64,000 nt of DNA from a bacterium (GTDB lineage Bacteria > SZUA-79 > Acidulodesulfobacterales > Acidulodesulfobacteraceae), in contig JAKAQA010000001.1 of NCBI GenBank assembly GCA_021811805.1, positions 533 through 64,532 on the forward strand, read 5' to 3'. Shown piece after piece: positions 11,565 to 35,317 of this stretch. Both the position numbers and the translations under genes were made by a program. Positions within the stretch are counted from its first letter, which is position 1. Every line of letters starts with the position of its first letter. The notes under the pieces were generated by a model. It made no database searches. It had not been told where the DNA came from and saw only the letters and a program-made list of their open reading frames with translations.

Positions 11565-13197
11565 CCCCAAAATTGCCGATAGAAATTATTTGCTCCTATC
11601 CTGACCCCTGTTTAAGAGATTTTTTTAGGTAAAATTAATTTTTGGGACTAAAAAAAATAATTTTACTTTTTCCAAAAATTATCTTTTTAAAAAAGGGTCA
11701 TAATTCCACAATTTTATCAAAAAATAGTAGTTTTAAGACATAGTCTTCCCGCCGTTTTTCGAATATGCTAAAAATTGATACCGAAATCTATGCAAATATA
11801 AAACAGTTATCCCTCATACGTTCATAGAGTATAAGTTTATCCACGGTAGAAGCAATAAGAAGGACTAACCGCCTTCCGTGGTTTATCAGCCTGCCCGCTA
11901 TGTTAACAACGGACCATCTGATAGTTTCTATGGTTTTATTTCTAAATTCTTCGGGTAAGAGATGCAGTTTCATTATTACCGTAGTGTTATAGACTAAAAC
12001 TCCTACGGCAAAGAACAGGGCGTTTGCAAAATAATCTCCCGTAGGAATATCTTCCATGCCGAATCCTATTTTTAGCTCTTTTATTGCGTTTTCTATGGAT
12101 ACCCTTTTATTGTATTCATAGATTACTTCTTCTTTCGGGGTGTCTTGGTTAGTCGCTATAACGTGGTAGCAATAAGTATCTTGTTCAAAAAGCCCCGCCT
12201 CTTTTTTAATCCATTTAAGCGCGACTATTCTGAACGGATCTGATTTTTCCATGCAGTATATACTTTCCCCTATTAATCTGTCCGTAACAATGCCGTCCGA
12301 GGTTTTAAATTCCGACCAGTTATCTATTCTTTTAACCTGTTCTTTCATAGAAGAGGTTTTGTCGGCGGATATCGTAAAAGTAACTTTTTTTGACGTTAAA
12401 TATTCTATAACGCAGGAAGAATAGAATTCCGAATCTATGGACACGTGGGTTATTTTTTTACCGGAAAGATTTATGATATTAAATATCTCTTCTAAAACTC
12501 CTACCGTTGCGCCGGATATATTACCGTCTCTGAACTCGTGGAACAATATAATGGGAATTTCGTTTAAAGCGGCTATTATCGGTCTATAGCCTTTAAAACC
12601 CGTATACGATTTTACCGCATCGAATTTGTTTGCTTCTATCATCGTAGGATCTATAAAAAGGGTGTATTCCATATTTTTGTCTAAAGATAAAAGCCTTTTG
12701 TTTATTTCGTATATTACCTTTTTAAATCCGTTAAGACCCGTTTTGCCGAGTCTTCTTAGCCAGTCTCCGTATGTAGAAGAAGACGGGATTTTAATGCCGG
12801 CAAGCTCTGTAATGGTCGTATCGTTTATCAATTCTTTTAAATCTTCAATATGCCTGCCGCCCGAAAATAACATAAGCATTAACGGTATTATATAGAAGGA
12901 AGGCTTGTAGCCCCTGTTGGAAGCAGGAAGAGGCATATATTTGTCTATCAGTAAATCAACGTTTAGTTTTTTTAGCATTTCCGCATAAACTGCAACGCCA
13001 GACCTCGGAGTTATTTTTTCTTTCGTAATTCCCAATTTGAAATTTAATTGCATTTGTTGTAACATATTTATTAACCTCCTTTTTTATTTGTTTTTCACCT
13101 GACGGGTGAATATAATTAGCAATAATTATATCACTGAAAGACAGATAAATAAAGGAGTTTTTTAGTTTTTGGTTAAGTTTCTATCGGCAAATTACAG
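11565..13197 (-). mobile_element. Insertion sequence, IS4 superfamily (IS1380/IS701-like), about 1.63 kb
   Basis: A single transposase ORF is flanked by imperfect inverted repeats: AATTGCCGATAGAAA (11571-11585) and the reverse complement of TTTCTATCGGCAAATT (13178-13193). Exact tips are uncertain and no short target duplication was found. Confidence 0.7.
11788..13065 (-). CDS. DDE transposase (IS4 superfamily)
   Basis: 425 aa. Y-x2-R-x3-E-x6-K signature in YEYNKRVSIENAIKELK. DDE-region blocks TLFIDPTMIEA and VSIDSEFYS. Confidence 0.8.
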   Translation of the reverse strand: MLQQMQLNFKLGITKEKITPRSGVAVYAEMLKKLNVDLLIDKYMPLPASNRGYKPSFYIIPLMLMLFSGGRHIEDLKELINDTTITELAGIKIPSSSTYGDWLRRLGKTGLNGFKKVIYEINKRLLSLDKNMEYTLFIDPTMIEANKFDAVKSYTGFKGYRPIIAALNEIPIILFHEFRDGNISGATVGVLEEIFNIINLSGKKITHVSIDSEFYSSCVIEYLTSKKVTFTISADKTSSMKEQVKRIDNWSEFKTSDGIVTDRLIGESIYCMEKSDPFRIVALKWIKKEAGLFEQDTYCYHVIATNQDTPKEEVIYEYNKRVSIENAIKELKIGFGMEDIPTGDYFANALFFAVGVLVYNTTVIMKLHLLPEEFRNKTIETIRWSVVNIAGRLINHGRRLVLLIASTVDKLILYERMRDNCFIFA

Positions 13198-17351: not shown

Positions 17352-19166
17352 CTAATTGCGGCATTTCATTAATAAAATGGAAACGGCGGCGGGAGTAATA
17401 CCCGAAATTCGTCCCGCTTCCGCAATAGTCCCGGGTCTGATTTTATTAAGTTTTTCGACTACTTCGAGCGATAAGCCGGGTATTACGTTAAAATCAATAT
17501 CGCCGTCTAGCTTAACGTCCTCGAATTTTTTTAACCTGCCTATCTCTTCTTTCTGCCTGCTGATGTAGCCTTCATATTTAATAAAAAGCTGAGCTCTGTT
17601 AACAATATCCCTATCGAATTTATCAATTTCCTTTCTAAATTCCGGCATAATATTATTATCTATGGAAAAATCCGGCCGTTTTAACAGACTGTAATACTTT
17701 CCGTTTTCATAAGTTTTCAAAAAACCAGTTAATTCGTTAAATTGCGCCAGTCTGTAATTATATACAGAGTATCTTTCTTCATCGAGCAATCCAATACTTT
17801 TTCCATATTCGCAAAGCCTGAAGTCCGCATTGTCTTCCCTCAATAAAAGCCTGTATTCGGCGCGGGACGTAAACATTCTATAAGGTTCGCTTGTTCCAAG
17901 CATAATCAAATCGTCGATTAAAACCCCTATATATGCCTCATCTCTTCTAAGCATCAAAGAATTTTCGCCCCTAATTTTCATAACCGCGTTAATTCCGGCA
18001 ATAATGCCCTGCGCCGCCGCTTCTTCATAACCTGAAGTGCCGTTAATCTGCCCCGCCAAAAAAAGACCGTCTATTTTTTTAGTTTCCAAGGAATGTTTAA
18101 GCTGGTCGGACAAAACGTAATCGTATTCTATGGCATACCCCGGTCTCATGATTTTTACTTTTTCAAGCCCTTTAATCGTTCTTAAAAATTTAAGCTGCGT
18201 CTCCAAAGGCAGGCTCGTCGAAAGCCCGTTGGGATAGTATTCCACGGAATCAAGGCTTTCCCTTTCTAAAAATATCTGATGTCTTTCTTTATCTTTAAAC
18301 CTGACGACTTTATCTTCTATGGAAGGGCAGTATCTCGGACCGACTCCTTTAATAACTCCGCAGTATAAGGGGGACTTGTCCAGATCGTTTAAAATTATAT
18401 TATGCGTATTTTTATTTGTATATGTTATATAACAGCTTATTTCATTAGTTATATTTTTATCGGCAATAGAAAAAGGGATAAAATCCTCTTCTCCTTTTTG
18501 TTCTTCAAGCTCGTAAAAATCGATGGTTCTGCCGTCTAATCTCGGGGTGGTGCCCGTTTTAAGCCTTCCAAGCTCAAGACCGTTTTCAAGCAGGCTTAAA
18601 GAAAGGTTATTTGAAGCAAAATCCCCGGCTCTTCCCGCATTATAATTAAAAAGACCGATATGCACAAGCCCTCTTAAAAAAGTTCCCGTAGTTAAAATAA
18701 CGGCACTGGAATAAAGATTTTCGCCCGTCCATAAAACGACTCCCGCGGCTTTGCCATTTTTGACGATCAACGAATCGACCATAGATTGAATTATGGTCAA
18801 ATTTTCGGCAGACTCCAGAACGGTTTTCATATAAGTTTTATATTTAAACATATCGGCTTGCGCGCGGGACGACCTGACCGCTGGACCCTTTTTTGTATTA
18901 AGGGTTCGGAACTGAATGCCGGTTTTGTCTATAGCCTTTCCCATTTCTCCGCCGAGCGCATCGACTTCGCGCACGAGATGCCCTTTAGCAAGCCCCCCTA
19001 TCGCAGGGTTGCAGGACATCTGTCCGATATTGTCTAAATTAATCGTAATGACGGCGGCATTCAAGCCCATTCTTGCGGCGGCAAGGGAAGCCTCTATACC
19101 GGCATGCCCTGCGCCTACCACGATTACGTCAAAATTATTTGTTTCATTATCATTTTTGTTCTTCAT
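17352..19166 (-). CDS. mnmG: tRNA uridine 5-carboxymethylaminomethyl modification enzyme MnmG (GidA)
   Basis: 604 aa. FAD motif DVIVVGAGHAGIEA, then QMSCNPAIGGLAKGHLVREVDALGG, with colinear family similarity over the full length. Confidence 0.97.
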   Translation of the reverse strand: MKNKNDNETNNFDVIVVGAGHAGIEASLAAARMGLNAAVITINLDNIGQMSCNPAIGGLAKGHLVREVDALGGEMGKAIDKTGIQFRTLNTKKGPAVRSSRAQADMFKYKTYMKTVLESAENLTIIQSMVDSLIVKNGKAAGVVLWTGENLYSSAVILTTGTFLRGLVHIGLFNYNAGRAGDFASNNLSLSLLENGLELGRLKTGTTPRLDGRTIDFYELEEQKGEEDFIPFSIADKNITNEISCYITYTNKNTHNIILNDLDKSPLYCGVIKGVGPRYCPSIEDKVVRFKDKERHQIFLERESLDSVEYYPNGLSTSLPLETQLKFLRTIKGLEKVKIMRPGYAIEYDYVLSDQLKHSLETKKIDGLFLAGQINGTSGYEEAAAQGIIAGINAVMKIRGENSLMLRRDEAYIGVLIDDLIMLGTSEPYRMFTSRAEYRLLLREDNADFRLCEYGKSIGLLDEERYSVYNYRLAQFNELTGFLKTYENGKYYSLLKRPDFSIDNNIMPEFRKEIDKFDRDIVNRAQLFIKYEGYISRQKEEIGRLKKFEDVKLDGDIDFNVIPGLSLEVVEKLNKIRPGTIAEAGRISGITPAAVSILLMKCRN

Positions 19167-19185: not shown

Positions 19186-22100
19186 CTATATAACGCTTAA
19201 GAACTCGGCAATCACTCTAAAATCCGTTTCCGGCGCATTTTCTATGATTATCGGCTCAAATTCCTTGTTATCCGGAGATAAAACAATCCGTTTGTTCCGG
19301 CATGTTCCATCATCTAAATATTCTTTCTCGCTGTGATATCTTTTTACGGTATATTTCTGATTTGTTTCCCTATCGGCAACTTGTCTCGATTCTACCAAAA
19401 CGACGGCCCCGTTTCGGGAACCCCCTTTGTCAAATCTGAACGCACAATAGCTGCCGTCTGGAATAGCAGGCTCCATAGAACGACCCACGACTTTTGCAAT
19501 AAACATATCTTTATTAAGTTTCCTTCCTGTAATTTCAGCCCTCATCCAGCCCGAATTCTCGACATATTCTTCCTTTCCAAAAGCCGTGGCGGCGGCTTCT
19601 AAGGAATAAACAGGCAGGTATAGAGTGAACTTCTCGGCTTCATCAATTTCATAGCGCAAATTTAAATTTAATTGGTTGTAAAATTCTTTTACAAATATAT
19701 TTTTTTTATTATCATTGTAAAAAGGCATACCTATGAGTTTATACTCTTTGTTCTCGCTAAACAGCATATCCTCAGAGCTTAATTTATATTTTGCTCTAAT
19801 TTCTTTCAAAAAATCCTCTTTCCATTGGTCTTTAGGAATTAAGTGTTCTCCTTTAGATTCAATAAACAACTGGTATTGTTCTAATTTATCGGTACTGTCC
19901 TTTTTTAAAAATAATACAAAATCCGGTTCAGTCGGTCTCCCATCGGAAAAGTTATATATACTGAATAAACTTTCATTTCTTAAAAGATAAATGCCGGAAT
20001 AGTTTTTTTTCTTTAATTCATTTATGACTCCGTCAATAAAACGTATTAGCTGTTTTTCTTCAGAAGTTCCGTAATTTTCATTATATATATACCATTCTTT
20101 ATCCATTAATCTTAAATTTAACGATTGGGGGCTTTCGCTCATAGGCTTGCCATATTCCGCTTCGGAATATTCTCCTACATTTATTTTCAGATTTTTATCT
20201 TTCACGATTTCCTTAACCAAATTTCCCTTGAATAACTCTGTTCCTTTATATTCGGTAAATTCGTTTTTGATTTCTTTTTCTAATTGGCTTAAAACATATA
20301 TACAAATGTTTAGTTTTTCAAATGTTTCAATCTTATTAGATTTAGCCTCTGCCGCCGTTATAGTAACGCTTATCTCTTTTAAGGATTCAATAAAATCAGT
20401 CGAATTATTCAGGGAAGGAAAATATTCTTTTAGATTATTGAATCTATAAAAATCAAGTTTTGCCATTGTCTTTCTTATAACGGCATCCCCAAAGATTTTC
20501 AGTTTAATCGGCGGATTCGTAACAGTTTGAAATACACCGGGGGGTTCATATTCGGCTAAAACGGTAAATTCCCGAGTCATACCTGTCGCTAAATTATATT
20601 TATATGCTTTTGATATATTTATATCTTGCAATGTTCTTAATTTAGAGCGATCTTGTTTCTCCCTTTTGTTTATAAATATAAATGCATTATTCCAAAAATC
20701 CGATTTTTTTATCTCATCTTTAACTCTTAATTCAAGTTCCTTCGTTTCGTGAGGCATAATTCCGGCTTCTTTTAAGGCTATAGTTAATTCCTGAATATAC
20801 CTTGGGTTATTTACGCTATGATAATAAAGCTCTTCTATAATTTTAAGTTCATCTTCAGGCAGGTTATCAAATTTTCTTTTAAACGGGTCACCGGCGCTTT
20901 CAGATTTAAATGGATAATATCTCGCGCCCCTGCCGATTAATTGAGCTTCGGCTATTGTTGTTTTACCGGGCTTATTGCCCTTGGCATCTCTGGTATCATA
21001 TAGCCTGACAATATCAAATAGATTTAGTACATCCCACCCCTCATTTAACATATTTACTACAAATATTGCTCTTATTTCATTGTCTTCATTTTCAAGGGTG
21101 TTTAATTTTAACTGCTTATCTTTATTTATATTTTCAGAATCAAGAACAATGCACTTTTCTGAAGAAAAATCCTCTTTCAACTCCAAAATTAAATTTTGAA
21201 TAGCGATATTGTTCCTATTAAAATATTGAAAAACTTTCTCCAAAATCGTATTATTTGAATATTGCTCTATATTTTCAATATCTGCCGCTTTTAAGCCGTT
21301 AATTTTGTCCCTAAATAACTCATAATTTTCTTTTGATTCTTCAATGCTTCTGGATTTAAAAAGTATTACGGGCTTTAAATGCAGTCCGTTTTTTTCGGCA
21401 ATTTTCCTTCTATATTGGCTTAAAATCACGGCTTTTAACATTCTTTTCAACGCTTCCGAGTCTGACTCTAACACCTTTACTTCTTTAGAGTAGCCGTCAA
21501 TTCTAAATTGTTTAAGATCGTACTCGAAAATTATCTTCTCTTTGTATTTTTCAAAAATATTTGCATTGTTTATGTCAACCGTAGCGGTGTATTCAAGTAT
21601 AATATTATCCGAATTGCTGTTAAGAATGCTCGAAACGGAACCCTCCCATGTATCTTTCAGCTCCACTTCTTTTTTTCCTATAGAATGATTTCTTGTCCAT
21701 GTATTTATATGATGGGCTTCATCGGAAATCAGTGCAATCTTTTTATCGGCAAAATCCTCTATGGTGATAGAATTTTCCTTAAAAAGATTTAACTGGCTAT
21801 GGAGACCTTGAATTGTGGTAAAGATTATGTTTATATCATTTTCATTGGTAGCCTCAAAGTTTACGGCCTCATTAATGCCGACATTCCTGCCCTCGAATTG
21901 TATCTTATTGTTAAAAAGATATTTTGACGAAAGAGGATTTAAAAAGTTATCCCTGGTCTTTTCTATTATATTTACGCTGTTTACGAAAAATAAAAAATGC
22001 CTGTAACCAATGCTGTATAAATACAATATATTTGCGGCCATAAGAAGCGTTTTTCCCGAACCGGTCGCCATGTTAAACAATAACTGGATAGGCATGGATT

Positions 22101-22275
22101 TATTCGGGTGCTTTTCAAGATAGTAAATAAAGCGGGTTATTGCTTCAACCTGATACTCTCTTAAACTAAAGCTACTATTAAGGTTATTGGTCAAGTAATC
22201 AGGGATTGTTTTTTCGATATACCCTATTTTAGAAATTACATCATATTCCCGACTTAATCTTTGCATTTCCGGCAT
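19186..22275 (-). CDS. res: Type III restriction enzyme Res subunit (SF2 helicase + PD-(D/E)xK nuclease) with C-terminal LexA/S24 peptidase-like domain
   Basis: Helicase motifs MATGSGKT, SDEAHH, QLIGRGARY. Nuclease motif EPDFVLF...IESKG. The last ~145 aa carry VVGRSMEPAIPDG ... RNGAVVLV ... YTVKRY ... LSPDNKEFEPIII, an S24 Ser-Lys fold. The track starts at 22290; ATG 22275 has a GGAG SD 9 nt upstream and lies 1 nt after the mod stop. Confidence 0.85.
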   Translation of the reverse strand: MPEMQRLSREYDVISKIGYIEKTIPDYLTNNLNSSFSLREYQVEAITRFIYYLEKHPNKSMPIQLLFNMATGSGKTLLMAANILYLYSIGYRHFLFFVNSVNIIEKTRDNFLNPLSSKYLFNNKIQFEGRNVGINEAVNFEATNENDINIIFTTIQGLHSQLNLFKENSITIEDFADKKIALISDEAHHINTWTRNHSIGKKEVELKDTWEGSVSSILNSNSDNIILEYTATVDINNANIFEKYKEKIIFEYDLKQFRIDGYSKEVKVLESDSEALKRMLKAVILSQYRRKIAEKNGLHLKPVILFKSRSIEESKENYELFRDKINGLKAADIENIEQYSNNTILEKVFQYFNRNNIAIQNLILELKEDFSSEKCIVLDSENINKDKQLKLNTLENEDNEIRAIFVVNMLNEGWDVLNLFDIVRLYDTRDAKGNKPGKTTIAEAQLIGRGARYYPFKSESAGDPFKRKFDNLPEDELKIIEELYYHSVNNPRYIQELTIALKEAGIMPHETKELELRVKDEIKKSDFWNNAFIFINKREKQDRSKLRTLQDINISKAYKYNLATGMTREFTVLAEYEPPGVFQTVTNPPIKLKIFGDAVIRKTMAKLDFYRFNNLKEYFPSLNNSTDFIESLKEISVTITAAEAKSNKIETFEKLNICIYVLSQLEKEIKNEFTEYKGTELFKGNLVKEIVKDKNLKINVGEYSEAEYGKPMSESPQSLNLRLMDKEWYIYNENYGTSEEKQLIRFIDGVINELKKKNYSGIYLLRNESLFSIYNFSDGRPTEPDFVLFLKKDSTDKLEQYQLFIESKGEHLIPKDQWKEDFLKEIRAKYKLSSEDMLFSENKEYKLIGMPFYNDNKKNIFVKEFYNQLNLNLRYEIDEAEKFTLYLPVYSLEAAATAFGKEEYVENSGWMRAEITGRKLNKDMFIAKVVGRSMEPAIPDGSYCAFRFDKGGSRNGAVVLVESRQVADRETNQKYTVKRYHSEKEYLDDGTCRNKRIVLSPDNKEFEPIIIENAPETDFRVIAEFLSVI

Positions 22276-22276
22276 T

Positions 22277-24250
22277 TTAAAAATCTCCATAGAATTCTCT
22301 GTTGAGTTTTTTATCCTCGTCGTCTATTTTATAAATACCGTCGTCTATTTCGCTGTAATTAACGTATAAATCATTTTTATCAAGCGTTTCGATAAGCAAT
22401 TTCTTTTGCTCTTCAAAACTTAACTTTTTAAATTCTTCTATGTTTTCATCAAATAAACTTGGATTTACTCTATAACTCAAAAATCCTTTAATTTTCATTT
22501 CATCCCAAACAATTAGAAGTTCGCTTTTATTATTTGCATCTTGAATCATATTTATAAAAGATTCGTTTAATTTTGCCAACTCCATATAAACAAAATCACT
22601 GCCGCCCTGCCAATTTACAGCCCTTGAAATTCCACTTTGCTCACCTTTAATTGTATTAGCCAATCTCGCAACGCTGTCATTATTTCCATAATCTAATTGT
22701 TCGATACCAATATAATGTCTGTCCATTTTATGTGCTACAGCAGCGGTCGTTCCACTTCCTAAATGATAATCTAAAACAATATCGCCGGATTCAGTTGCTA
22801 TCTCAAAAATTTGCTTAATTAATTTTTCGGGCTTTTTCCCGTTTTTTAATTTTACACCACCTTCATTGGCAATGCCTGCCCATGATATATGATCCCAAAA
22901 ATTAGATAATAATTCGGTAACTTTTACTTCACCATCTATTTCTTTGATTTTACTGGAATAAAATGCTAACGAACCTCCATTATATAAAAACATTGGTGAA
23001 TCGTCTTTTTTTTTATAAATAAAAATCTTGCCTCTTTCTCTTTTAGATTTTTCTTGTAAATTTCTAACGGTTTCTGTTGGTTTATGGAGATCTCTGACGC
23101 TTACCACAAATTCTGAATTTTCAAACGCAAATTTAGCAAGCATATCTTTTAAAATGATGTTGTATGTATCGCCATATTTATCTTTGAATTGTTTTTCATT
23201 ACTATAACCATGCCCTATTAATACCTTTTCTTTTAATGAAATTAATTTCCATTTATCTACATCATTGCTATTGTTTTTTTCTAAATATAAATTATAATTT
23301 TCGTGATAATCTGCTTCTATATAGTTTTTTTTAAACTTAAATTCATCTTTATTCTTAGCATAAAATAAAATAAATTCTGTTATATCAATAGGTCCCGGAT
23401 TAACAGCTTTAAATCCTGAAGCAGATGCCGTTTTAACTGCTATAATTTGAATTTTATTTTCAATACCAAATATTTCATCTAATAAAATATTAATATAGGC
23501 AACTTCGTGATGATCAATTTGGATAAATATACACCCCGTTTCGCTCAATAATTGCTTAGCTATTGATAGCCTGTTTTTCATAAAAGTCAGCCACGTAGAA
23601 TGATTAAAATTATCATTATATTTAAAACTATCGGAGCCAGTATTATATGGCGGGTCAATATAAATTAGTTTTACTTTTCCTGCAAATTTTTTCCTTAACG
23701 AATGGAGAACTAAAAGATTATTCCCTCTAATTAATAAATTATCCGTTTCTTTTATCTCACCTATTTCGTGTTCCCCGTTCTTGTCAATTCTCTTAAATTT
23801 TGTGAAAACTTTTGGAGCTAACAATCTGTCGATTTCATCCGAAGCTAAAATCTCGTTATGAAAAACTTCTTTCCTCTTTTCATCGGATTTTTCCTGTCCC
23901 CCTTCCAAAATGCAATCTTTATATGGCCACGCTAAAACTACTTCTTTATTTTGGGATATATAACTACCGCTTGCGGTTAATCCTATTTTATTTTTAAAAG
24001 AGGTATAGGAATCAGGTAAGAACTCTTTATTATCCACAAATTTCATAAATTTTTCTTTGTCAAAAATTAAAGTTTCGTCAACATCGATAAAAAAATGCTC
24101 TTTGATTATTTCATTGCTTAAAAGTAACTTTATTAAATCTTTGTCCAATTTTAATGCCAATTCAACTACTTTATTCTTTAAAATTTTCCCGTCAGAAACA
24201 AATTTTTTATTGTTACTTAATAATTCTTTAAGCTCTTCCATCAATCGCAT
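22277..24250 (-). CDS. mod: Type III R-M Mod subunit (beta-class N6-adenine/N4-cytosine DNA methyltransferase)
   Basis: 657 aa. Motif IV LIYIDPPYNTGSD precedes motif I VLDYHLGSGTTAAVAH. It lies immediately upstream of res and overlaps the longer res ORF by 14 nt. Confidence 0.9.
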   Translation of the reverse strand: MRLMEELKELLSNNKKFVSDGKILKNKVVELALKLDKDLIKLLLSNEIIKEHFFIDVDETLIFDKEKFMKFVDNKEFLPDSYTSFKNKIGLTASGSYISQNKEVVLAWPYKDCILEGGQEKSDEKRKEVFHNEILASDEIDRLLAPKVFTKFKRIDKNGEHEIGEIKETDNLLIRGNNLLVLHSLRKKFAGKVKLIYIDPPYNTGSDSFKYNDNFNHSTWLTFMKNRLSIAKQLLSETGCIFIQIDHHEVAYINILLDEIFGIENKIQIIAVKTASASGFKAVNPGPIDITEFILFYAKNKDEFKFKKNYIEADYHENYNLYLEKNNSNDVDKWKLISLKEKVLIGHGYSNEKQFKDKYGDTYNIILKDMLAKFAFENSEFVVSVRDLHKPTETVRNLQEKSKRERGKIFIYKKKDDSPMFLYNGGSLAFYSSKIKEIDGEVKVTELLSNFWDHISWAGIANEGGVKLKNGKKPEKLIKQIFEIATESGDIVLDYHLGSGTTAAVAHKMDRHYIGIEQLDYGNNDSVARLANTIKGEQSGISRAVNWQGGSDFVYMELAKLNESFINMIQDANNKSELLIVWDEMKIKGFLSYRVNPSLFDENIEEFKKLSFEEQKKLLIETLDKNDLYVNYSEIDDGIYKIDDEDKKLNREFYGDF

Positions 24251-24351: not shown

Positions 24352-25374
24352 TTATAATTTTTTATATTTTTTTAATAATTTCTTTACTTCACGGTCAAAA
24401 TCAGACTCAATCGGCTGAATTTTATTATATTCTCGATATTCTCCTATGGCTTTTTTATCGGCCTTTTCTTTTGAAATTTGCCCTTTGCCGTCAAGTATCC
24501 TGAATTCATTGAAATCTAAAAATTTATTAACGCTCCCCGCAAACTCCGACATAGTGAAAGTCTTGCGGTTTTCTATAATGTTTTCTATATAATCAAAGAA
24601 GCCTGAAACAGCCCTCTCAAGTTTCTTAATCTCTGTTTCTTGTAAATAATTTTTAGCGATAGTTACATCGTAGGGAAGAATCCTGCCTTTTGGCGCATTC
24701 TTCCATGTCGCAAGCCCCATATAAGGCTTGTTTTTATCGGCTTTTGAGTGAATAATTTCGGCGGCTGTCATGCCTGTAATAGCAAAATGAAACTTATTCT
24801 GAATCGTCGCAAAAAACTCTTTAGTTATATCCGAATGGGGGTCGTAATCGATGCTGCACTCTGCAAAAATATCGGTAATCTGTTGATATATTCGCCTTTC
24901 GCTTGCCCGTATAGAGCGGACTCTTTCCAGTAACTCTTTAAAATAATCCCTGCCAAAAACCCGTTCGCCCTGCTTAAGCCGTTCATCGTCAACGGCAAAG
25001 CCCTTTACGATATATTCCTTTAAAACTTTGGTAGCCCATATTCTAAACTGCGTGGCCATTCTAGAATTGACTCGATAACCGACGGCTATAATGGCATCAA
25101 GGTTGTAAAAAGCAACTTCACGTTCAATTTCCCTTTCTCCTTCTCTTTGAACTATCCGGATTTTCCGGATAGTTGATATCTCATCCAATTCTCCGCTTTT
25201 AAAGATATTCTTAATATGCTCATTAATAGTCCTTACATCTACTCCGAACAATTCCGCCATCATTTTTTGCGTAAGCCATAAGGTTTCATCCAGTAAAAAA
25301 ACCTCTAATTTTACATCGCCGGACGGCGTGGTATAAAGGATAAAATTCCCTGATTTTTGTAGTTTATTATCCAT
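24352..25374 (-). CDS. RhuM-family protein (so-called virulence protein RhuM; frequent companion of R-M loci)
   Basis: 340 aa. N-terminal block LWLTQKMMAELFGVDVRTINEHIKNIF ... FYNLDAIIAVGYRVNSRMATQFRIWATKVLKEYIVKGF is characteristic of the family. Confidence 0.8.
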   Translation of the reverse strand: MDNKLQKSGNFILYTTPSGDVKLEVFLLDETLWLTQKMMAELFGVDVRTINEHIKNIFKSGELDEISTIRKIRIVQREGEREIEREVAFYNLDAIIAVGYRVNSRMATQFRIWATKVLKEYIVKGFAVDDERLKQGERVFGRDYFKELLERVRSIRASERRIYQQITDIFAECSIDYDPHSDITKEFFATIQNKFHFAITGMTAAEIIHSKADKNKPYMGLATWKNAPKGRILPYDVTIAKNYLQETEIKKLERAVSGFFDYIENIIENRKTFTMSEFAGSVNKFLDFNEFRILDGKGQISKEKADKKAIGEYREYNKIQPIESDFDREVKKLLKKYKKL

Positions 25375-25514: not shown

Positions 25515-26921
25515 TTATTTGCCTATACAGAATTCTTTGAAAAGTATGTCCAGAACGTCTTCGTTGGTTACTCCCCCGACAATCTCGCCAAGAGCGTTAA
25601 TGCCGTCCCTTAAATCTATGGATATTAATTCGAGGGGCTGTCCTTCTTTAAATTTATCTTTTGCATTCTCTAATAAATTTAAAGATTTTACTAATAAATT
25701 TTTCTGCCTCAGAGTGGTAATGCCGACGTCGTCTTTGACCCCGCCTTCAATTTTTAAAATAATGTCGTGCGCCGCTTTTTTCATCGCTTCAAAACCGGTG
25801 CCCGTCTTAGCGCTGATAAAAACCGGATTATTCGTAAATCCAAACGCCTGCATAACGTTTTTTCCTATTACGCTTAAGTCTTTTCCGTCAGATATATCAA
25901 CCTTATTTATAACAGGAATTAAACTATCTCTTTTCCCCTCTAATATATCTCTTAAAATTTCATTTTCCGCTAAATCGTTTATATCAAAAACGTATAAAAC
26001 GGCATCCGCGCTTTTAATTTGATTGCGGCTCTGTTTTATGCCCTCATACTCTAATGTTTCGCCTGTTTCTCTCAAGCCTGCGGTATCGATTATTTTAACG
26101 GGTTTATTAGATAAGAACAGGTTTTCTTCGATATAATCCCTTGTAGTGCCTGCCGTATCCGAAACTATTGCCCTGTTTTTATCGACGAGCCTGTTTAATA
26201 TGCTCGACTTGCCGACGTTCGGAGCTCCGGCTATTACCACGCTGAAACCATGCTTGTTCAGCTCGTAATTTTCGTAAGATGCCATAAGTCCGCCGATTAA
26301 TTCTGCCGTTTCCTCAGTCTTTTTTAAAAAATCGGCATTAATATTTTCAAAAATTTCCTCTGGAAAATCGATTAAAGCTTCTACGGAGGCAAGCAGATAA
26401 ATATAATCTTCTTTTATTTTATTTATCCTTTCTTCCAAGAGACCGTTCAACTCGTTATTTGCGATAACAAGGGTTTTCAACGAATTTGCCTTAATGATTT
26501 CAAGGATTGATTCGGCTTTTATAAGATTTATCTTATTGTTTAAATAAGCTCTTTTTGTGAATTCTCCGTTGTGCGCAAGCCTTGTTCCGGATTTTAGGAT
26601 AATTTCGAGGATATATTTTGTATTAAATACCCCTCCGTGAGGATATATTTCAAACATATCTTCTCCGGTATAGGAATCGGGGCCTTTTATGAAAACGCAT
26701 ACCGCTTCATCGACGTACGATTCTGTTTGAAAATCAAAAATGCGTCCTGTATATAAAAAACGGGGTTTTATATCTGAAAAATCTTTACGGTAAGGTTTAA
26801 AAACTTTTTGCAGTATATATATACAGTCTTTGCCTGATGCCCTGATAATGCTAATCGCTCCTTCCCCCGAGGGAGAAGAAATAGCGCAAATCGTGTCTAT
26901 TTCGTATGTTAAAGAGGACAT
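25515..26921 (-). CDS. mnmE: tRNA modification GTPase MnmE (TrmE)
   Basis: 468 aa. G1 motif GAPNVGKSS, G3 motif DTAGLR, and the diagnostic C-terminal FCIGK. Confidence 0.97.
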   Translation of the reverse strand: MSSLTYEIDTICAISSPSGEGAISIIRASGKDCIYILQKVFKPYRKDFSDIKPRFLYTGRIFDFQTESYVDEAVCVFIKGPDSYTGEDMFEIYPHGGVFNTKYILEIILKSGTRLAHNGEFTKRAYLNNKINLIKAESILEIIKANSLKTLVIANNELNGLLEERINKIKEDYIYLLASVEALIDFPEEIFENINADFLKKTEETAELIGGLMASYENYELNKHGFSVVIAGAPNVGKSSILNRLVDKNRAIVSDTAGTTRDYIEENLFLSNKPVKIIDTAGLRETGETLEYEGIKQSRNQIKSADAVLYVFDINDLAENEILRDILEGKRDSLIPVINKVDISDGKDLSVIGKNVMQAFGFTNNPVFISAKTGTGFEAMKKAAHDIILKIEGGVKDDVGITTLRQKNLLVKSLNLLENAKDKFKEGQPLELISIDLRDGINALGEIVGGVTNEDVLDILFKEFCIGK

Positions 26922-29237: not shown

Positions 29238-29634
29238 AAGATTTGCTCCAAACTAAATATTATATTGAAATTATGACAAATTTTTATTAAAGCAAATTAG
29301 TATTAAGATGTCAAGTTTTTTTATTTTCAATTTAACCCGTAACTTATGATAATATATGGACGAATGCAGACTTTCATTAATTAACATATTGATTTTACAA
29401 GAAATAATTTGATAAAATTTAATTGAAATATATTTAAAAATTTGATAATGTTGATTTGTCTAATTTTATTTATAATTTAAATCTAAAAAATAATAGGAAA
29501 ATTAGGCAGATTTATTATAAAATGGTTGGCCTAAGTTCTTGTAATTATTATACTATTTGAGTTATCAACAATTGTTGGCAACTCTGTTTAATTTTAATAT
29601 TCCTATCTTTAATAAAAAATTTCAAATATATTTT
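29238..29634. other. Candidate oriC part 1 / dnaA control region (very AT-rich rpmH-dnaA spacer)
   Basis: 397-bp AT-rich spacer at the point where gene orientation switches from minus (rpmH) to plus (dnaA). It contains the DnaA-box-like palindrome listed separately. Confidence 0.45.
29562..29581. promoter_or_regulatory. Inverted pair of DnaA-box-like 9-mers around a perfect 12-bp palindrome
   Basis: TTATCAACA (29562-29570) has 1 mismatch to TTATCCACA. It overlaps the palindrome CAACAATTGTTG (29566-29577). The inverted partner TTGCCAACA has 3 mismatches. The pair sits about 60 nt upstream of the dnaA ATG. Confidence 0.4.
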
Positions 29635-31008
29635 ATGGATAAAGTCGAACCTTTACTTGAAGAATTAAAAAAAGAAATCGGCGCCAGTAATTTCAATATA
29701 TGGTTTAATCCTACCGATATATGTTTAAATAATAATACTTTAATATTTTCCGTTCCCAATAAATTTTTTAAAGACATCATTAATGAATCGTATAAAGAAA
29801 CTATTGTAAATATCTGGAAAAATTTAGATAACCAAGAAGAACTTAATTTTATTTATAATATCAATGAAAGCCCCGAAGCGGCCAATGCCGGAGAAAACAA
29901 TATCCGCATTCAGGGCATAGAAAATAATAATTTAAATAAATCTACGGGCATAGAAAAAATTGCAGAAAATAAAAAAAATCTAAAAAAAATCTACCTCAAC
30001 GTAAATTCAAAATATACTTTTGAAAATTTTGTTATAGGCTCTGGCAACCAATTTGCCCACGCTGCAAGTTTTGCGGTCGCCAATCTGCCGGGACAGACAT
30101 ATAATCCTATGTTTATTTACAGCGACGTCGGACTCGGCAAAACGCACCTGCTTAATGCTATTGCAAATAAGATAATAAAAGAAAAAAATTTAACCGTATA
30201 TCTCGTTTCCTCCGAAAAATTTACCAACGAAATGATTACGTCTATCAGGGACGATAAAATGGTTGAATTCAGAAACAGATATAGAAACGTAGATGTTCTG
30301 CTTATTGACGATATACAATTTATTGCTGGAAAAGAAAGAACTCAGGAAGAATTTTTTTATACTTTTAACGCTTTATATGAAAATCAAAAACAGATAGTCG
30401 TATCAAGCGATAAAATACCTAAAGATATAGTAAGCCTAGAGGAAAGGATAAGGTCAAGATTTGAATGGGGATTAATAGCCGATATTCAGCCTCCTGATTT
30501 TGAAACCCGCGTTGCCATTCTTAAGAAAAAAGCCTTATTAAATAATATTAATTTCCCTGATGATGTTTTAAACCTTTTAGCTAATAAAATCAGTTCCAAT
30601 ATAAGGGAATTAGAAGGGGCGATGATTAAAATATCTGCATATTCGTCTTTTACCGGAAAACCTATTACCATCGACCTTGCAATTGAAGCGACGTCAAATT
30701 TACTTAAGGAAAATGAAAAAGTTATAACGGCGGAAAATGTTATAAAATCCGTATGTAATTATTTTAATATTAAAATCGGCGATATTAAATCAAATAAAAA
30801 ATTAAAAGAATTTGTGGAACCCCGTCAAATCGCCATGTATTTAATAAGAAATTATACAGAATTATCGTTTCCCGAAATAGGCGATAAATTCGGCGGTAAA
30901 GATCATTCTTCTATAATTTATGCGGTAAATAAAGTTAAAAAGAATTTAGAAAACAATGAAGGGTTAGAAAAAATATTAAGTAATATTATTAAAATGATAA
31001 AAAAATAA
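29635..31008 (+). CDS. dnaA: Chromosomal replication initiator DnaA
   Basis: Walker A GLGKTHL, the VLLIDDIQF box, sensor and arginine-finger region, and the C-terminal DNA-binding helix GGKDHSSIIYA. The ATG at 29635 (MDKVEPLLEEL...) is preferred over the track TTG at 29557. Confidence 0.95.
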   Translation: MDKVEPLLEELKKEIGASNFNIWFNPTDICLNNNTLIFSVPNKFFKDIINESYKETIVNIWKNLDNQEELNFIYNINESPEAANAGENNIRIQGIENNNLNKSTGIEKIAENKKNLKKIYLNVNSKYTFENFVIGSGNQFAHAASFAVANLPGQTYNPMFIYSDVGLGKTHLLNAIANKIIKEKNLTVYLVSSEKFTNEMITSIRDDKMVEFRNRYRNVDVLLIDDIQFIAGKERTQEEFFYTFNALYENQKQIVVSSDKIPKDIVSLEERIRSRFEWGLIADIQPPDFETRVAILKKKALLNNINFPDDVLNLLANKISSNIRELEGAMIKISAYSSFTGKPITIDLAIEATSNLLKENEKVITAENVIKSVCNYFNIKIGDIKSNKKLKEFVEPRQIAMYLIRNYTELSFPEIGDKFGGKDHSSIIYAVNKVKKNLENNEGLEKILSNIIKMIKK

Positions 31009-31219
31009 TATATAACTATGTTTAATTTATGTTTAATTTTTTTATGTAAAAAATATTAAACAATTTTATTAAAAATATATAGTAAAATTACACAGGTTTA
31101 TAAGTATTAATATGTTTATAATTATAATTACTTAAGTATTTATAAACTTTTTAAACGCTACTATTACTATTAATGTTTTTTAAATTAATTAATAAAAATA
31201 ATAAAAGGCTCGGCTAATT
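31009..31219. other. Candidate oriC part 2 (dnaA-dnaN spacer with unwinding-element features)
   Basis: 211-bp spacer of extreme AT content. It has a tandem 11-mer ATGTTTAATTT x2 (31018-31039), three GTTTATAA motifs, and the trio-like triplets listed separately. Confidence 0.4.
31158..31172. promoter_or_regulatory. Five consecutive DnaA-trio-like triplets
   Basis: The top strand reads CTA CTA TTA CTA TTA, so the bottom strand reads 3'-GAT GAT AAT GAT AAT-5'. A CG dinucleotide precedes them and a long A/T tract follows. Confidence 0.35.
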
Positions 31220-32476
31220 ATGTTGAATTTTAAAATTAAAAAGCAAATTTTTTTAAATTGTCTGTCGGCGGTTCAGGGAGCTTCCGAGAAAAAAGGCTCA
31301 ATGCCCATAATTTCTAATTTGCTTATAGAAAGCATAGAAAATAATTTAATTAAAGTAAGCGCGACCGATTTGGAAATCAGCATTGTAACATACTGTAACG
31401 CCGAAATTATATCTGAAGGTAAAACAACGGTAAATTCAAAAAAAATATATAATATTATAAAAGAATTTCCGGAAAGTAAAGAAAAAAAAGATAAAGATGA
31501 GGATTTATTTATAAAATTTATTGAAAATGAAGCGGGAGTAGTTACTATAAGCTATAAAAAAACGGTTTTTAAATTAACTACCGTTCCGGCAAGTGATTAT
31601 CCTACTATTATAAATTTCGAGTCCGAGGATAATTTTAATATCGAATTAAAAACTTTTAAAACGCTTATTAGTAAAGTAATACTTTCTACCGCGGCATCGG
31701 AAGATACAAAAAGAAATCTTACTGGGGTTTATTTTGTTTTAGAAGAAGCGGACGGTAAAGATTATCTTAGATTAGTTGCAACCGACGGGCATAGATTATC
31801 TTTAGCCCAATCCGAAATTAATTATAACGGAAAAAAAGACGGCGGGATTTATGATTTACTAAAAACAGGCGTTATAATCCCAAGAAAAATTTTAACCGAA
31901 GTTTTAAAATTAGACAAAGAAGGTTTTATTAAAATTTTAATAAATTCCAATAATGTAATTTTTGAATTTGAAAAACAATCCGATAACTTAAATAAAAATA
32001 CTAAGCTTATATCTAGGCTTATAGAAGGAAAATTTCCGGATTATAATACTGTTCTTCCTAAAGATGGCTATAAAACTTCAATAATTAACACGAAAAATTT
32101 TTATAATTCTATTAAAATGGTTTCGCTGCTTGCCGAAGAAAAAAGTCATTCGATAGAGTTGAGTTTTAGCGAAAATAATCTATTAATTAAAACGGTTAAT
32201 ACAAATATAGGAGAAGGAAGCGACGAATTGGAAATTAATTATAAAGGCGAACCGATAAGTATTAAATTAAATTCGAGATATATTATGGATTTTATTTCAA
32301 ATATTAACGAAAATAATTTAAGCGTTAAGTTTAATACTATTTATACCCCTTTTGTTATCGAACCGTATATAATATCGGAACATGCGTCCGACAGTAACGA
32401 TAATACCGGTAAAACGAATAATAATGCGGTTAAGCCAATGCAGGTTATAGGTATATTTATGCCGATGAGATATTAA
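31220..32476 (+). CDS. dnaN: DNA polymerase III beta sliding clamp
   Basis: 418 aa. Block LVATDGHRLS and C-terminal FMPMRY are present. It carries low-complexity insertions relative to ~370-aa clamps. Confidence 0.93.
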   Translation: MLNFKIKKQIFLNCLSAVQGASEKKGSMPIISNLLIESIENNLIKVSATDLEISIVTYCNAEIISEGKTTVNSKKIYNIIKEFPESKEKKDKDEDLFIKFIENEAGVVTISYKKTVFKLTTVPASDYPTIINFESEDNFNIELKTFKTLISKVILSTAASEDTKRNLTGVYFVLEEADGKDYLRLVATDGHRLSLAQSEINYNGKKDGGIYDLLKTGVIIPRKILTEVLKLDKEGFIKILINSNNVIFEFEKQSDNLNKNTKLISRLIEGKFPDYNTVLPKDGYKTSIINTKNFYNSIKMVSLLAEEKSHSIELSFSENNLLIKTVNTNIGEGSDELEINYKGEPISIKLNSRYIMDFISNINENNLSVKFNTIYTPFVIEPYIISEHASDSNDNTGKTNNNAVKPMQVIGIFMPMRY

Positions 32477-32480
32477 TTAA

Positions 32481-35317
<2,837 letters not shown>

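Follow-up and report, generated by a model that had tools for sequence, protein, structure and literature searches.

A LexA-like S24 module at the C-terminus of a type III restriction subunit and of other defence enzymes

Determinants of the S24 family are an Ala-Gly or Cys-Gly bond together with a Ser-Lys dyad (PMC8565304), and the family members LexA, UmuD and cI bind the RecA filament via a hydrophobic pocket and an acidic patch (PMC9926225). LexA-like proteins hold buried ClpXP C-degrons beside the cleavage site that are exposed by self-cleavage (PMC5742171), and a passage in PMC10584840 (citing Neher et al. 2003) likewise describes that LexA-type self-cleavage bares ClpXP degrons next to the cut. 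In E. coli, HsdR is degraded by ClpXP in damage-induced restriction alleviation (PMC12707154). Here we analyze a stretch of 64,000 nucleotides from a bacterium of the Acidulodesulfobacteraceae (assembly GCA_021811805.1, contig JAKAQA010000001.1; the whole stretch is referred to as the window), in which Res, the nuclease subunit of a type III restriction-modification (R-M) system, ends in an S24 module related to the C-terminal domain of LexA. Positions are those of the window; res, mod, the RhuM-family gene, mnmE and mnmG, as well as all the motifs located within Res and its tail, are on the minus strand.

An S24 module fused to a type III Res protein

The res-S24 gene (19186..22290) is a continuous open reading frame (ORF) of 1034 amino acids plus stop; in the public gene call the start is placed five codons later, at a Met just past the mod stop, which gives a protein of 1029 amino acids. 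The S24 autoprotease module occupies residues 892-1034 (19189..19617). Pfam family PF00717 (Peptidase_S24) matched residues 907-1029 with an E-value of 3.5e-8 and 33.6 bits, against a curated cut-off of 23.3. When a profile of the clade formed by the module and its relatives (built from 83 relatives) was aligned by hhalign to E. coli LexA, a probability of 93% and an E-value of 2.4e-7 were obtained, with the Ser and Lys aligned. The AlphaFold2 model of residues 870-1034 had a mean pLDDT (predicted local distance difference test) of 90.4, and the top Foldseek matches of the modelled module in the PDB were all LexA C-terminal domains (E ~4e-6, probability 1.00). The 36 best PDB matches were LexA C-terminal domains, lambda cI and UmuD', followed by type I signal peptidases. 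When the clade profile was searched against PDB sequences, nothing was found at E<=0.01 and LexA was detected weakly at E~0.05; this marginal match indicates that the module is a divergent S24 branch. Together these results put the S24 assignment of the tail well beyond chance. A C-terminal S24 domain on a type III Res had been proposed in a sequence-only reading of this DNA, which named a profile search failing on S24 as grounds for giving the proposal up. Such a failure did not occur, as Pfam, hhalign and Foldseek all detected S24, and the proposal is borne out by Pfam, hhalign and the fold search alike.

Comparison with other Res proteins places the start of the tail. The S24 module was absent from all 119 closest Res homologues (57-66% identity, 857-910 amino acids); the closest tail-less proteins are about 875 amino acids long and come from Thermosipho, Kosmotoga, Hippea, Thermodesulfovibrio and others. 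In the alignment they end in ...KL(G/D/T)L(T/F) and a stop opposite residue ~878-880 of the window protein (sequences P0002, P0012, P0025, P0027 and P0067), so that their stop codon falls in the junction or linker NLRYEIDEAEKFTL (residues 878-891, 19618..19659). Past that position the fusion protein reads on as LRYEIDEAEKFTLYLPVYSLEAAATAFG... This strongly indicates that the module was added at the normal C-terminus of a standard Res. The base composition changes at the same place: the GC content is 29.2% in Mod, 31.8% in the part encoding Res residues 1-880 and 43.1% in the S24 tail, whose GC at third codon positions (GC3) is 41.6. The tail is near the flanking core genes mnmG and Nramp in GC content, and no 154-codon segment of Mod and the Res body exceeds it in GC3, the highest segment being its equal. 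These values are suggestive of, and compatible with, separate histories of Res body and tail; the GC3 of host genes varies from 24 to 44%, and for this reason the step at the junction is not decisive.

The fusion is also present in a second strain, where 66 of 3090 nucleotides differ from the window (97.9% nucleotide identity) without indels and the ORF has the identical length of 1029 amino acids. The Res body accounts for 54 of these differences and the tail for the other 12, of which 7 are synonymous. The second strain is represented in three independent assemblies (GCA_021828255.1 at NCBI, ERZ27237313 at ENA and SRR13205814 in Logan) and has the gene order RhuM-Mod-Res/S24-MnmG in common with the window. 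Thus, the in-frame junction is present in four assemblies of two strains. The frameshift artefact that the sequence-only reading had named as its second possible undoing did not occur, given the in-frame ORF of the second strain and a remnant of the tail in a deletion variant (see below). Considered as candidate explanations, a frameshift and an assembly chimera are ruled out by the same junction in two strains and four assemblies and by the deletion scar found elsewhere, and the res-S24 fusion is confirmed as real.

A broader version of this explanation, in which the tail is a chimera, a sequencing frameshift or a functionless recent capture in decay, could point to the GC step at the junction (31.8% in the body against 43.1% in the tail), to the closest Res homologues all being without a tail, and to frameshifted cargo/S24 pairs at locus L038 and in Halomonas (locus L090). 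It is extremely unlikely, however: the junction is in frame in all four assemblies, with 12 tail substitutions (7 synonymous) and no indels; the tail remnant is found in further assemblies; none of the catalytic or structural motifs is disrupted, and the fold prediction is of high confidence; and hundreds of genomes contain this architecture.

A third population variant, ERZ27237044 (locus L004 1226-2830, ~96% identical), has a 1-nt deletion just past an A7 run (window 20704-20710). The deletion cuts Res to 534 amino acids, and reflects either a naturally inactivated res gene or a homopolymer sequencing error.

The remainder of the protein and its neighbour have the features of a type III system. 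The Res body (residues 27-875, 19666..22212) matched PADLOC family REase_III (1e-119) over positions 24-861 of the 873 in the profile, and Pfam ResIII (2e-28). It contains superfamily 2 (SF2) helicase motifs I (MATGSGKT, residues 74-81, 22048-22071), II (the DEAH motif SDEAHH, residues 189-194, 21709-21726) and VI (QLIGRGARY, residues 450-458, 20917-20943), followed by the PD-(D/E)xK nuclease motif EPDFVLF...IESKG (residues 788-814, 19849-19929). Every Res and S24 motif that the sequence-only reading had listed for the 1034-residue ORF was located where it had been placed. The adjacent, co-oriented mod gene (22277..24250) encodes a type III methyltransferase (Pfam TypeIII_RM_meth 5e-25 and N6_N4_Mtase 1e-44; PADLOC MTase_III 8e-201). 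It overlaps res by 14 nt or, with the alternative public res start, ends 1 nt before it, and the two genes appear to be translationally coupled. With a Res that combines SF2 helicase motifs and a PD-(D/E)xK nuclease, and a Mod next to it in the same orientation, the type III R-M system looks complete as judged by its motifs.

A promiscuous C-terminal tail of defence enzymes

A phmmer search with residues 860-1034 against 1.84 billion cluster representatives returned 1473 proteins at E<=1e-3, 62 of them at E<=1e-30. Nearly all of the top 150 matches were at the extreme C-terminus of the matched proteins, which range from 200 to 1878 amino acids. A scan of the Genome Taxonomy Database (GTDB), one genome per species, identified at least 534 loci with the module. 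Locus statistics are based on 80 retrieved loci, which contain 58 ORFs uncut by contig ends, 55 of them with a long upstream part. The module ends 0-19 amino acids before the stop codon in 80/80 loci, and is preceded by 100-1845 amino acids in 55 of the 58 complete ORFs.

These upstream parts are defence proteins of many kinds. The commonest partner is type I HsdR (20/55), followed by DUF2075/Nhi-like proteins (11-14) and type III Res (~6-8); the others are STAND proteins (6), type ISP/IIG enzymes (3), DruE (2) and helix-turn-helix (HTH) proteins (1). Partners were also assigned for 68 long representatives. Their Pfam partners include ResIII-type helicases (17), SLFN-g3/DUF2075 helicases (11) and type ISP specificity domains (10), and further Eco57I/MmeI methylases, MrfA-type helicases, SNF2, HNH, STAND NTPases, AlwI, LlaJI and PLD; according to PADLOC the partners are type IIG, ISP, I, III and IV restriction enzymes, DruE, Nhi/AbiO-like proteins and PbeA. 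Examples are a 1199-amino acid HsdR-S24 protein in a metagenome-assembled genome (MAG) of Omnitrophota and type ISP-S24 enzymes of 1778 and 1827 amino acids, one of which is from Ca. Acididesulfobacter, a relative of the window host. The module therefore is a promiscuous tail of defence enzymes, and the clade is defence-specific.

Among type III systems, another mod-res-S24 system, with a Res of the same family (43% identity), is present at locus L045, and at six further loci a Mod homologue is followed by a Res-like protein of about 1100 amino acids with S24. When the Res body was used in phmmer against the long S24-bearing representatives, just four fragments of the same Res family were found; the other Res-S24 fusions fall in different REase_III families. 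A survey of Res homologues for the fusion, as suggested in the sequence-only reading, is thus negative for the 119 closest proteins and positive for other type III Res families. The fusion that this reading reported on a type III Res stands, but it is not peculiar to type III enzymes, which are one host among many.

The module is carried by Omnitrophota, Bacillota, Planctomycetota, Elusimicrobiota, Nitrospirota, Acidobacteriota, Myxococcota, Proteobacteria and Actinomycetes, and by one archaeal MAG; nearly all hosts are uncultured. The modules nearest to that of the window are attached to proteins of the type ISP and HsdR classes (69-74% identity), whereas those of other type III Res proteins are more distant (49-58% identity), indicating that the module evidently moved between enzyme classes. 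The domain adjoining it varies accordingly, being a nuclease in Res, a helical C-domain in HsdR and a target-recognition domain in type ISP enzymes. This variation favors a mechanism that is independent of the cargo, such as a degron, detachment or tethering, over a tailored inhibitory contact.

Short matches were considered as possible stand-alone S24 genes and rejected: the one checked, P0166, is the end of a 1199-amino acid HsdR ORF, and most short matches are from contigs of about 1 kb. No clade member was detected in the phage collection at E<=1e-6. The plasmid collection gave one plasmid or chromid match, from Halomonas, in which the S24 ORF is out of frame. In this replicon (Halomonas sp. 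PA16-9, NZ_CP040452.1; L090 5986-8456) and in an unrelated genome (L038 3084-6432), the cargo and S24 ORFs overlap by 50-70 nt in different frames. The cargoes at L038 and L090 are a Res-like protein and a DUF2075-like helicase, and the offset may come from errors in sequencing, from fusions in decay or from programmed frameshifts. Halomonas, which carries the module, has been cultured. In addition, a 287-amino acid protein on a 13.7-kb NCBI contig (P0121) contains two S24 modules in tandem.

Predicted self-cleavage and its possible role

To describe the module, residues were counted in 187 aligned modules, down to about 40% identity. The clade consensus is LPxYSLxAAA[G/T]xFG ...GW... MF[VI]AxVVGxSMEPxIPDGxxCxF ...GGSRxG ...DPET..[YF]T[VI]KRYxSEK...DGxWxH..I.L.P.N; the window protein also has the motif LSPDNKEFEPIII at residues 1004-1016. 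In the hhalign alignment, Ser938 in GRSMEP (19477..19479), the predicted nucleophile, corresponds to LexA Ser119, and Lys983 in YTVKRY (19342..19344), the predicted general base, to LexA Lys156. Ser and Lys are both kept in 186/187 modules, and the sole module without them has lost the site motif too.

The cleavage-site region LPVYSLEAAATAFG (residues 892-905, 19576..19617) corresponds to the first block of the consensus, and the predicted scissile bond is Ala901/Thr902 (codons GCC ACG, 19585-19590). The sequence-only reading was correct in stating that a canonical Ala-Gly bond is not obvious: the window protein has neither Ala-Gly nor Cys-Gly, while the strand LPxYSLxAAA is conserved. In the clade as a whole, P1 is Ala in 161 and Cys in 25 modules, the same two residues that are at P1 of LexA/cI and UmuD, and P1' is Gly in 129, Thr in 47 and Ser in 9. 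Accordingly, 129 bonds are Ala/Cys-Gly (Cys-Gly in 25), 47 are Ala-Thr and 9 are Ala-Ser. Both catalytic residues are kept in all 47 members of the Thr type. As the Thr902 codon, ACG, is two substitutions away from any Gly codon, a lone base-calling error cannot account for it. The site strand and the conserved spacing from Pro to P1' (P+9) resemble those of UmuD (FPLFSDLVQC-G). Together, the near-invariant dyad, its integrity in the Thr-type members and the loss of the site motif in the dyad-less member indicate selection on catalysis and not a purely structural role; conservation of the dyad in particular would argue against mere dimerisation. Control of restriction in response to damage or infection, or alternatively a dimerisation device, had been put forward as hypothetical roles in the sequence-only reading.

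The reading we prefer, to which we give a probability of roughly 45%, is that the self-cleaving tail is an off-switch encoded in cis that brings about restriction alleviation. We infer cleavage itself, its trigger and inactivation as its outcome, in the following way. A signal of the DNA-damage type, probably the RecA filament on single-stranded DNA (ssDNA), would move the cleavage strand into the active site, upon which Ser938/Lys983 would cut at Ala901/Thr902 and a 133-amino acid fragment would be released. What is left, a Res body with the C-terminus ...SLEAAA-COOH, would be degraded by proteases of the ClpXP type, as is the N-terminal part of cleaved LexA, or be deprived of a handle for oligomerisation. 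As a result, restriction would be alleviated in cis and the chromosome protected when it is damaged or carries unmodified sites. Because the tail is found on whatever domain is C-terminal in each host, its action is probably generic; and the ClpXP degrons of LexA-type proteins, together with the destruction of HsdR, the commonest partner, by ClpXP, favor an off-switch. The end ...AAA-COOH could serve as degron, by analogy with the C-degrons that are buried in LexA-like proteins (PMC5742171).

Several observations weigh against this reading. P1' is Thr in the window protein, while Gly is a determinant of the family (PMC8565304). The AlphaFold2 model shows the site region as a short helix (block pLDDT 71) and not as a docked strand. 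The LexA mutant G85D is non-cleavable; 1jhf, one of the Foldseek matches, is this mutant. Moreover, Cys997 and Asn999 (19294..19302) replace a Trp conserved in 162/187 modules and a His conserved in 172/187, on a clade-specific hairpin insertion that is absent from LexA. These replacements are unique to the window protein, which may therefore be a weakened member of the clade. After the predicted cut, 25 clade members would end in Cys. Finally, nothing in our results determines whether the switch would turn the enzyme off or on.

The proposed trigger can be compared with the described contacts between S24 proteins and RecA (PMC9926225). The pocket for Phe203 of RecA loop L2 consists of F111, L113 and V153 in LexA and of Y52, L54 and F94 in UmuD, and the acidic patch sits just ahead of the strand with the catalytic Lys (PMC9926225). 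Phe930, the equivalent of LexA F111, is conserved in 184/187 modules, and Tyr/Phe980, the equivalent of V153 or UmuD F94, in 181/187. Two of the three pocket positions are thus hydrophobic and conserved in the clade, with Ala932 in place of L113. The conserved acidic residues Asp973 and Glu975 are 8-10 residues before Lys983, as compared with 4-6 in LexA, the acidic RecA-contact patch being shifted by an insertion of about 8 amino acids; this also counts against the off-switch as formulated above. The displaced patch makes RecA dependence uncertain, although from the conserved pocket positions it would be plausible.

A switch working in the opposite direction would fit the conserved dyad and site motif equally well. 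The intact tail would keep the enzyme inactive or monomeric, and ssDNA-RecA arising in infection, or a phage cue, would induce cleavage and free the active nuclease. Partners that are not guided by methylation, such as the DUF2075/Nhi/AbiO-like helicases, DruE and the STAND NTPases, would gain from an infection trigger. We nevertheless consider an on-switch unlikely. All 119 closest tail-less homologues are complete standard enzymes, so that the body needs no activation; classical R-M must act on incoming DNA ahead of RecA filament formation; and the differences in adjoining domain between partners make a specific auto-inhibitory contact improbable.

LexA, UmuD' and cI dimerise through their C-domains, and cleavage by type III enzymes requires two cooperating complexes. 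The module of the window protein might accordingly not cut at all, but act as a dimerisation module that pairs two Res heads or as a tether to RecA filaments or ssDNA that recruits the enzyme to recombination or replication intermediates. The P1' Thr in place of Gly and the unique Cys997/Asn999 at conserved positions would be in agreement with this, as would the dimers bound in RecA grooves (PMC9926225). Conservation of Ser/Lys in 47/47 Thr-type modules and 186/187 overall is unexpected, however, if catalysis is dispensable, and the entire site motif is conserved as well, which makes a non-proteolytic handle rather improbable.

The conserved dyad would also serve a protease that acts in trans, cutting a partner subunit, a LexA-like regulator of the host or a phage protein instead of its own linker, and UmuD cleavage is indeed intermolecular within the dimer (PMC9926225). 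Yet essentially all members have a conserved UmuD/LexA-like site strand in cis, directly upstream of the core, and there is no conserved second gene that accompanies the tail across partner systems. We therefore regard this possibility as very unlikely.

Returning to the self-cleaving off-switch, it may be extended to the clade as a whole. S24 "fuses" on type I, ISP, IIG, III and IV enzymes and on helicase and STAND proteins of many phyla would cut themselves upon an SOS-type signal and expose an Ala-rich degron, shutting down immunity post-translationally during damage or under-methylation; as exchangeable cassettes they would provide a general means of alleviation in cis. In this general form the proposal is possible but somewhat doubtful.

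Genomic setting and comparison with known systems

The mod and res-S24 genes belong to an island that adjoins the replication origin region, in the arrangement dnaA-dnaN-gyrB / rnpA-yidC-mnmE-[island]-mnmG. It is flanked by the core genes mnmE (25515..26921) and mnmG (17352..19166), the latter starting 19 nt past the S24 stop codon. The first gene of the island (24352..25374) encodes a RhuM-family protein (Pfam Virulence_RhuM 7e-107; PADLOC PDC-S05 5e-153, a candidate defence family). The host is related to Ca. Acidulodesulfobacterium, with MnmG proteins that are 83-84% identical. In sister strains (MnmG 97-98% identical; loci L086, L087, L088 and L089) the mnmE-mnmG site is empty or contains RhuM only. 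The RhuM-only strains (L088/L089) have kept the last 57 nt of the S24 ORF, ENAPETDFRVIAEFLSVI and its stop, directly upstream of mnmG and identical to the window, joined in frame to an unrelated fragment of about 70 codons. The empty and RhuM-only states and this remnant strongly indicate that the R-M system is a variable island whose loss left a scar of the tail. The RhuM gene persists in strains without R-M genes.

No LexA and no tRNA genes were found within the window. The GC3 of dnaA and dnaN (window 29557-34955) is 27% and 24%, far below that of their neighbour gyrB (40%) and other core genes. A DDE transposase gene (DDE_Tnp_1_4, window 11788-13065), located between an antiporter-like gene and a molybdopterin oxidoreductase gene, is present only in the window strain; in L087 and L088 these genes directly adjoin each other, and the contig of L001 ends at the transposase point.

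In the full-text literature searched, which omits most subscription journals, no description of a fusion between S24 and an R-M or defence enzyme was found, and a recent comprehensive R-M review makes no mention of S24 or LexA. The architecture is already visible as database domain matches, yet apparently uninterpreted. We regard the fusion as an R-M enzyme of the usual kind to which a putatively regulatory, autoproteolytic module has been added, and see a fair chance that a general and undescribed principle of control lies behind it. The mechanism by which cells avoid restricting their own DNA after damage, repair or loss of methylation is understood for only a small number of type I enzymes (through ClpXP in E. 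coli), and not for type III enzymes or most others. A LexA-like self-cleaving tail would form a direct and easily testable link between SOS and restriction in the nuclease subunit itself. With the tail present on at least six defence classes and in hundreds of mostly uncultured species, it may represent a general principle of immune regulation, one that may have been overlooked because model organisms are without the tail. Protein engineers, too, would gain from it a portable degron or cleavage module that responds to a stimulus.

The closest known proteins are LexA, UmuD and lambda cI (MEROPS S24), with which the module shares the fold, the Ser-Lys dyad, a site strand just upstream of the core and an N-terminal cargo. 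In those proteins the cargo is an HTH domain or the short UmuD arm, whereas here it is a restriction ATPase-nuclease of about 880 amino acids: the place of the N-terminal winged-helix/HTH of the LexA/cI repressors is taken by a type III Res, and an HTH is found in just 1/55 clade ORFs. The clade further differs by insertions of its own (DPETGG and the Trp/His hairpin), and the window protein by Ala-Thr in place of the usual Ala-Gly or Cys-Gly bond. With type III Res proteins of the EcoP15I/EcoP1I type the window protein has the full helicase, the PD-(D/E)xK motif and the adjacent Mod in common, but it contains about 155 extra C-terminal residues, the S24 module; we know of no characterised type III enzyme with such a tail. 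When type IA/IB HsdR is subject to ClpXP-dependent restriction alleviation in E. coli, proteolytic loss of the nuclease/translocase subunit after damage avoids self-restriction (PMC12707154). The signal in that case is the recognition of the translocating enzyme by ClpX, without participation of an S24 domain, whereas in the fusion the proposed trigger would be built into the enzyme, the link to ClpXP being an analogy. The role proposed here also resembles that of CapH/CapP of CBASS, in which a DNA-damage-sensing protease is coupled to anti-phage control. Regulators of the CapH/CapP type act on transcription via a separate repressor and a metalloprotease; in the fusions described here, by contrast, a serine autoprotease is joined to the effector enzyme itself.

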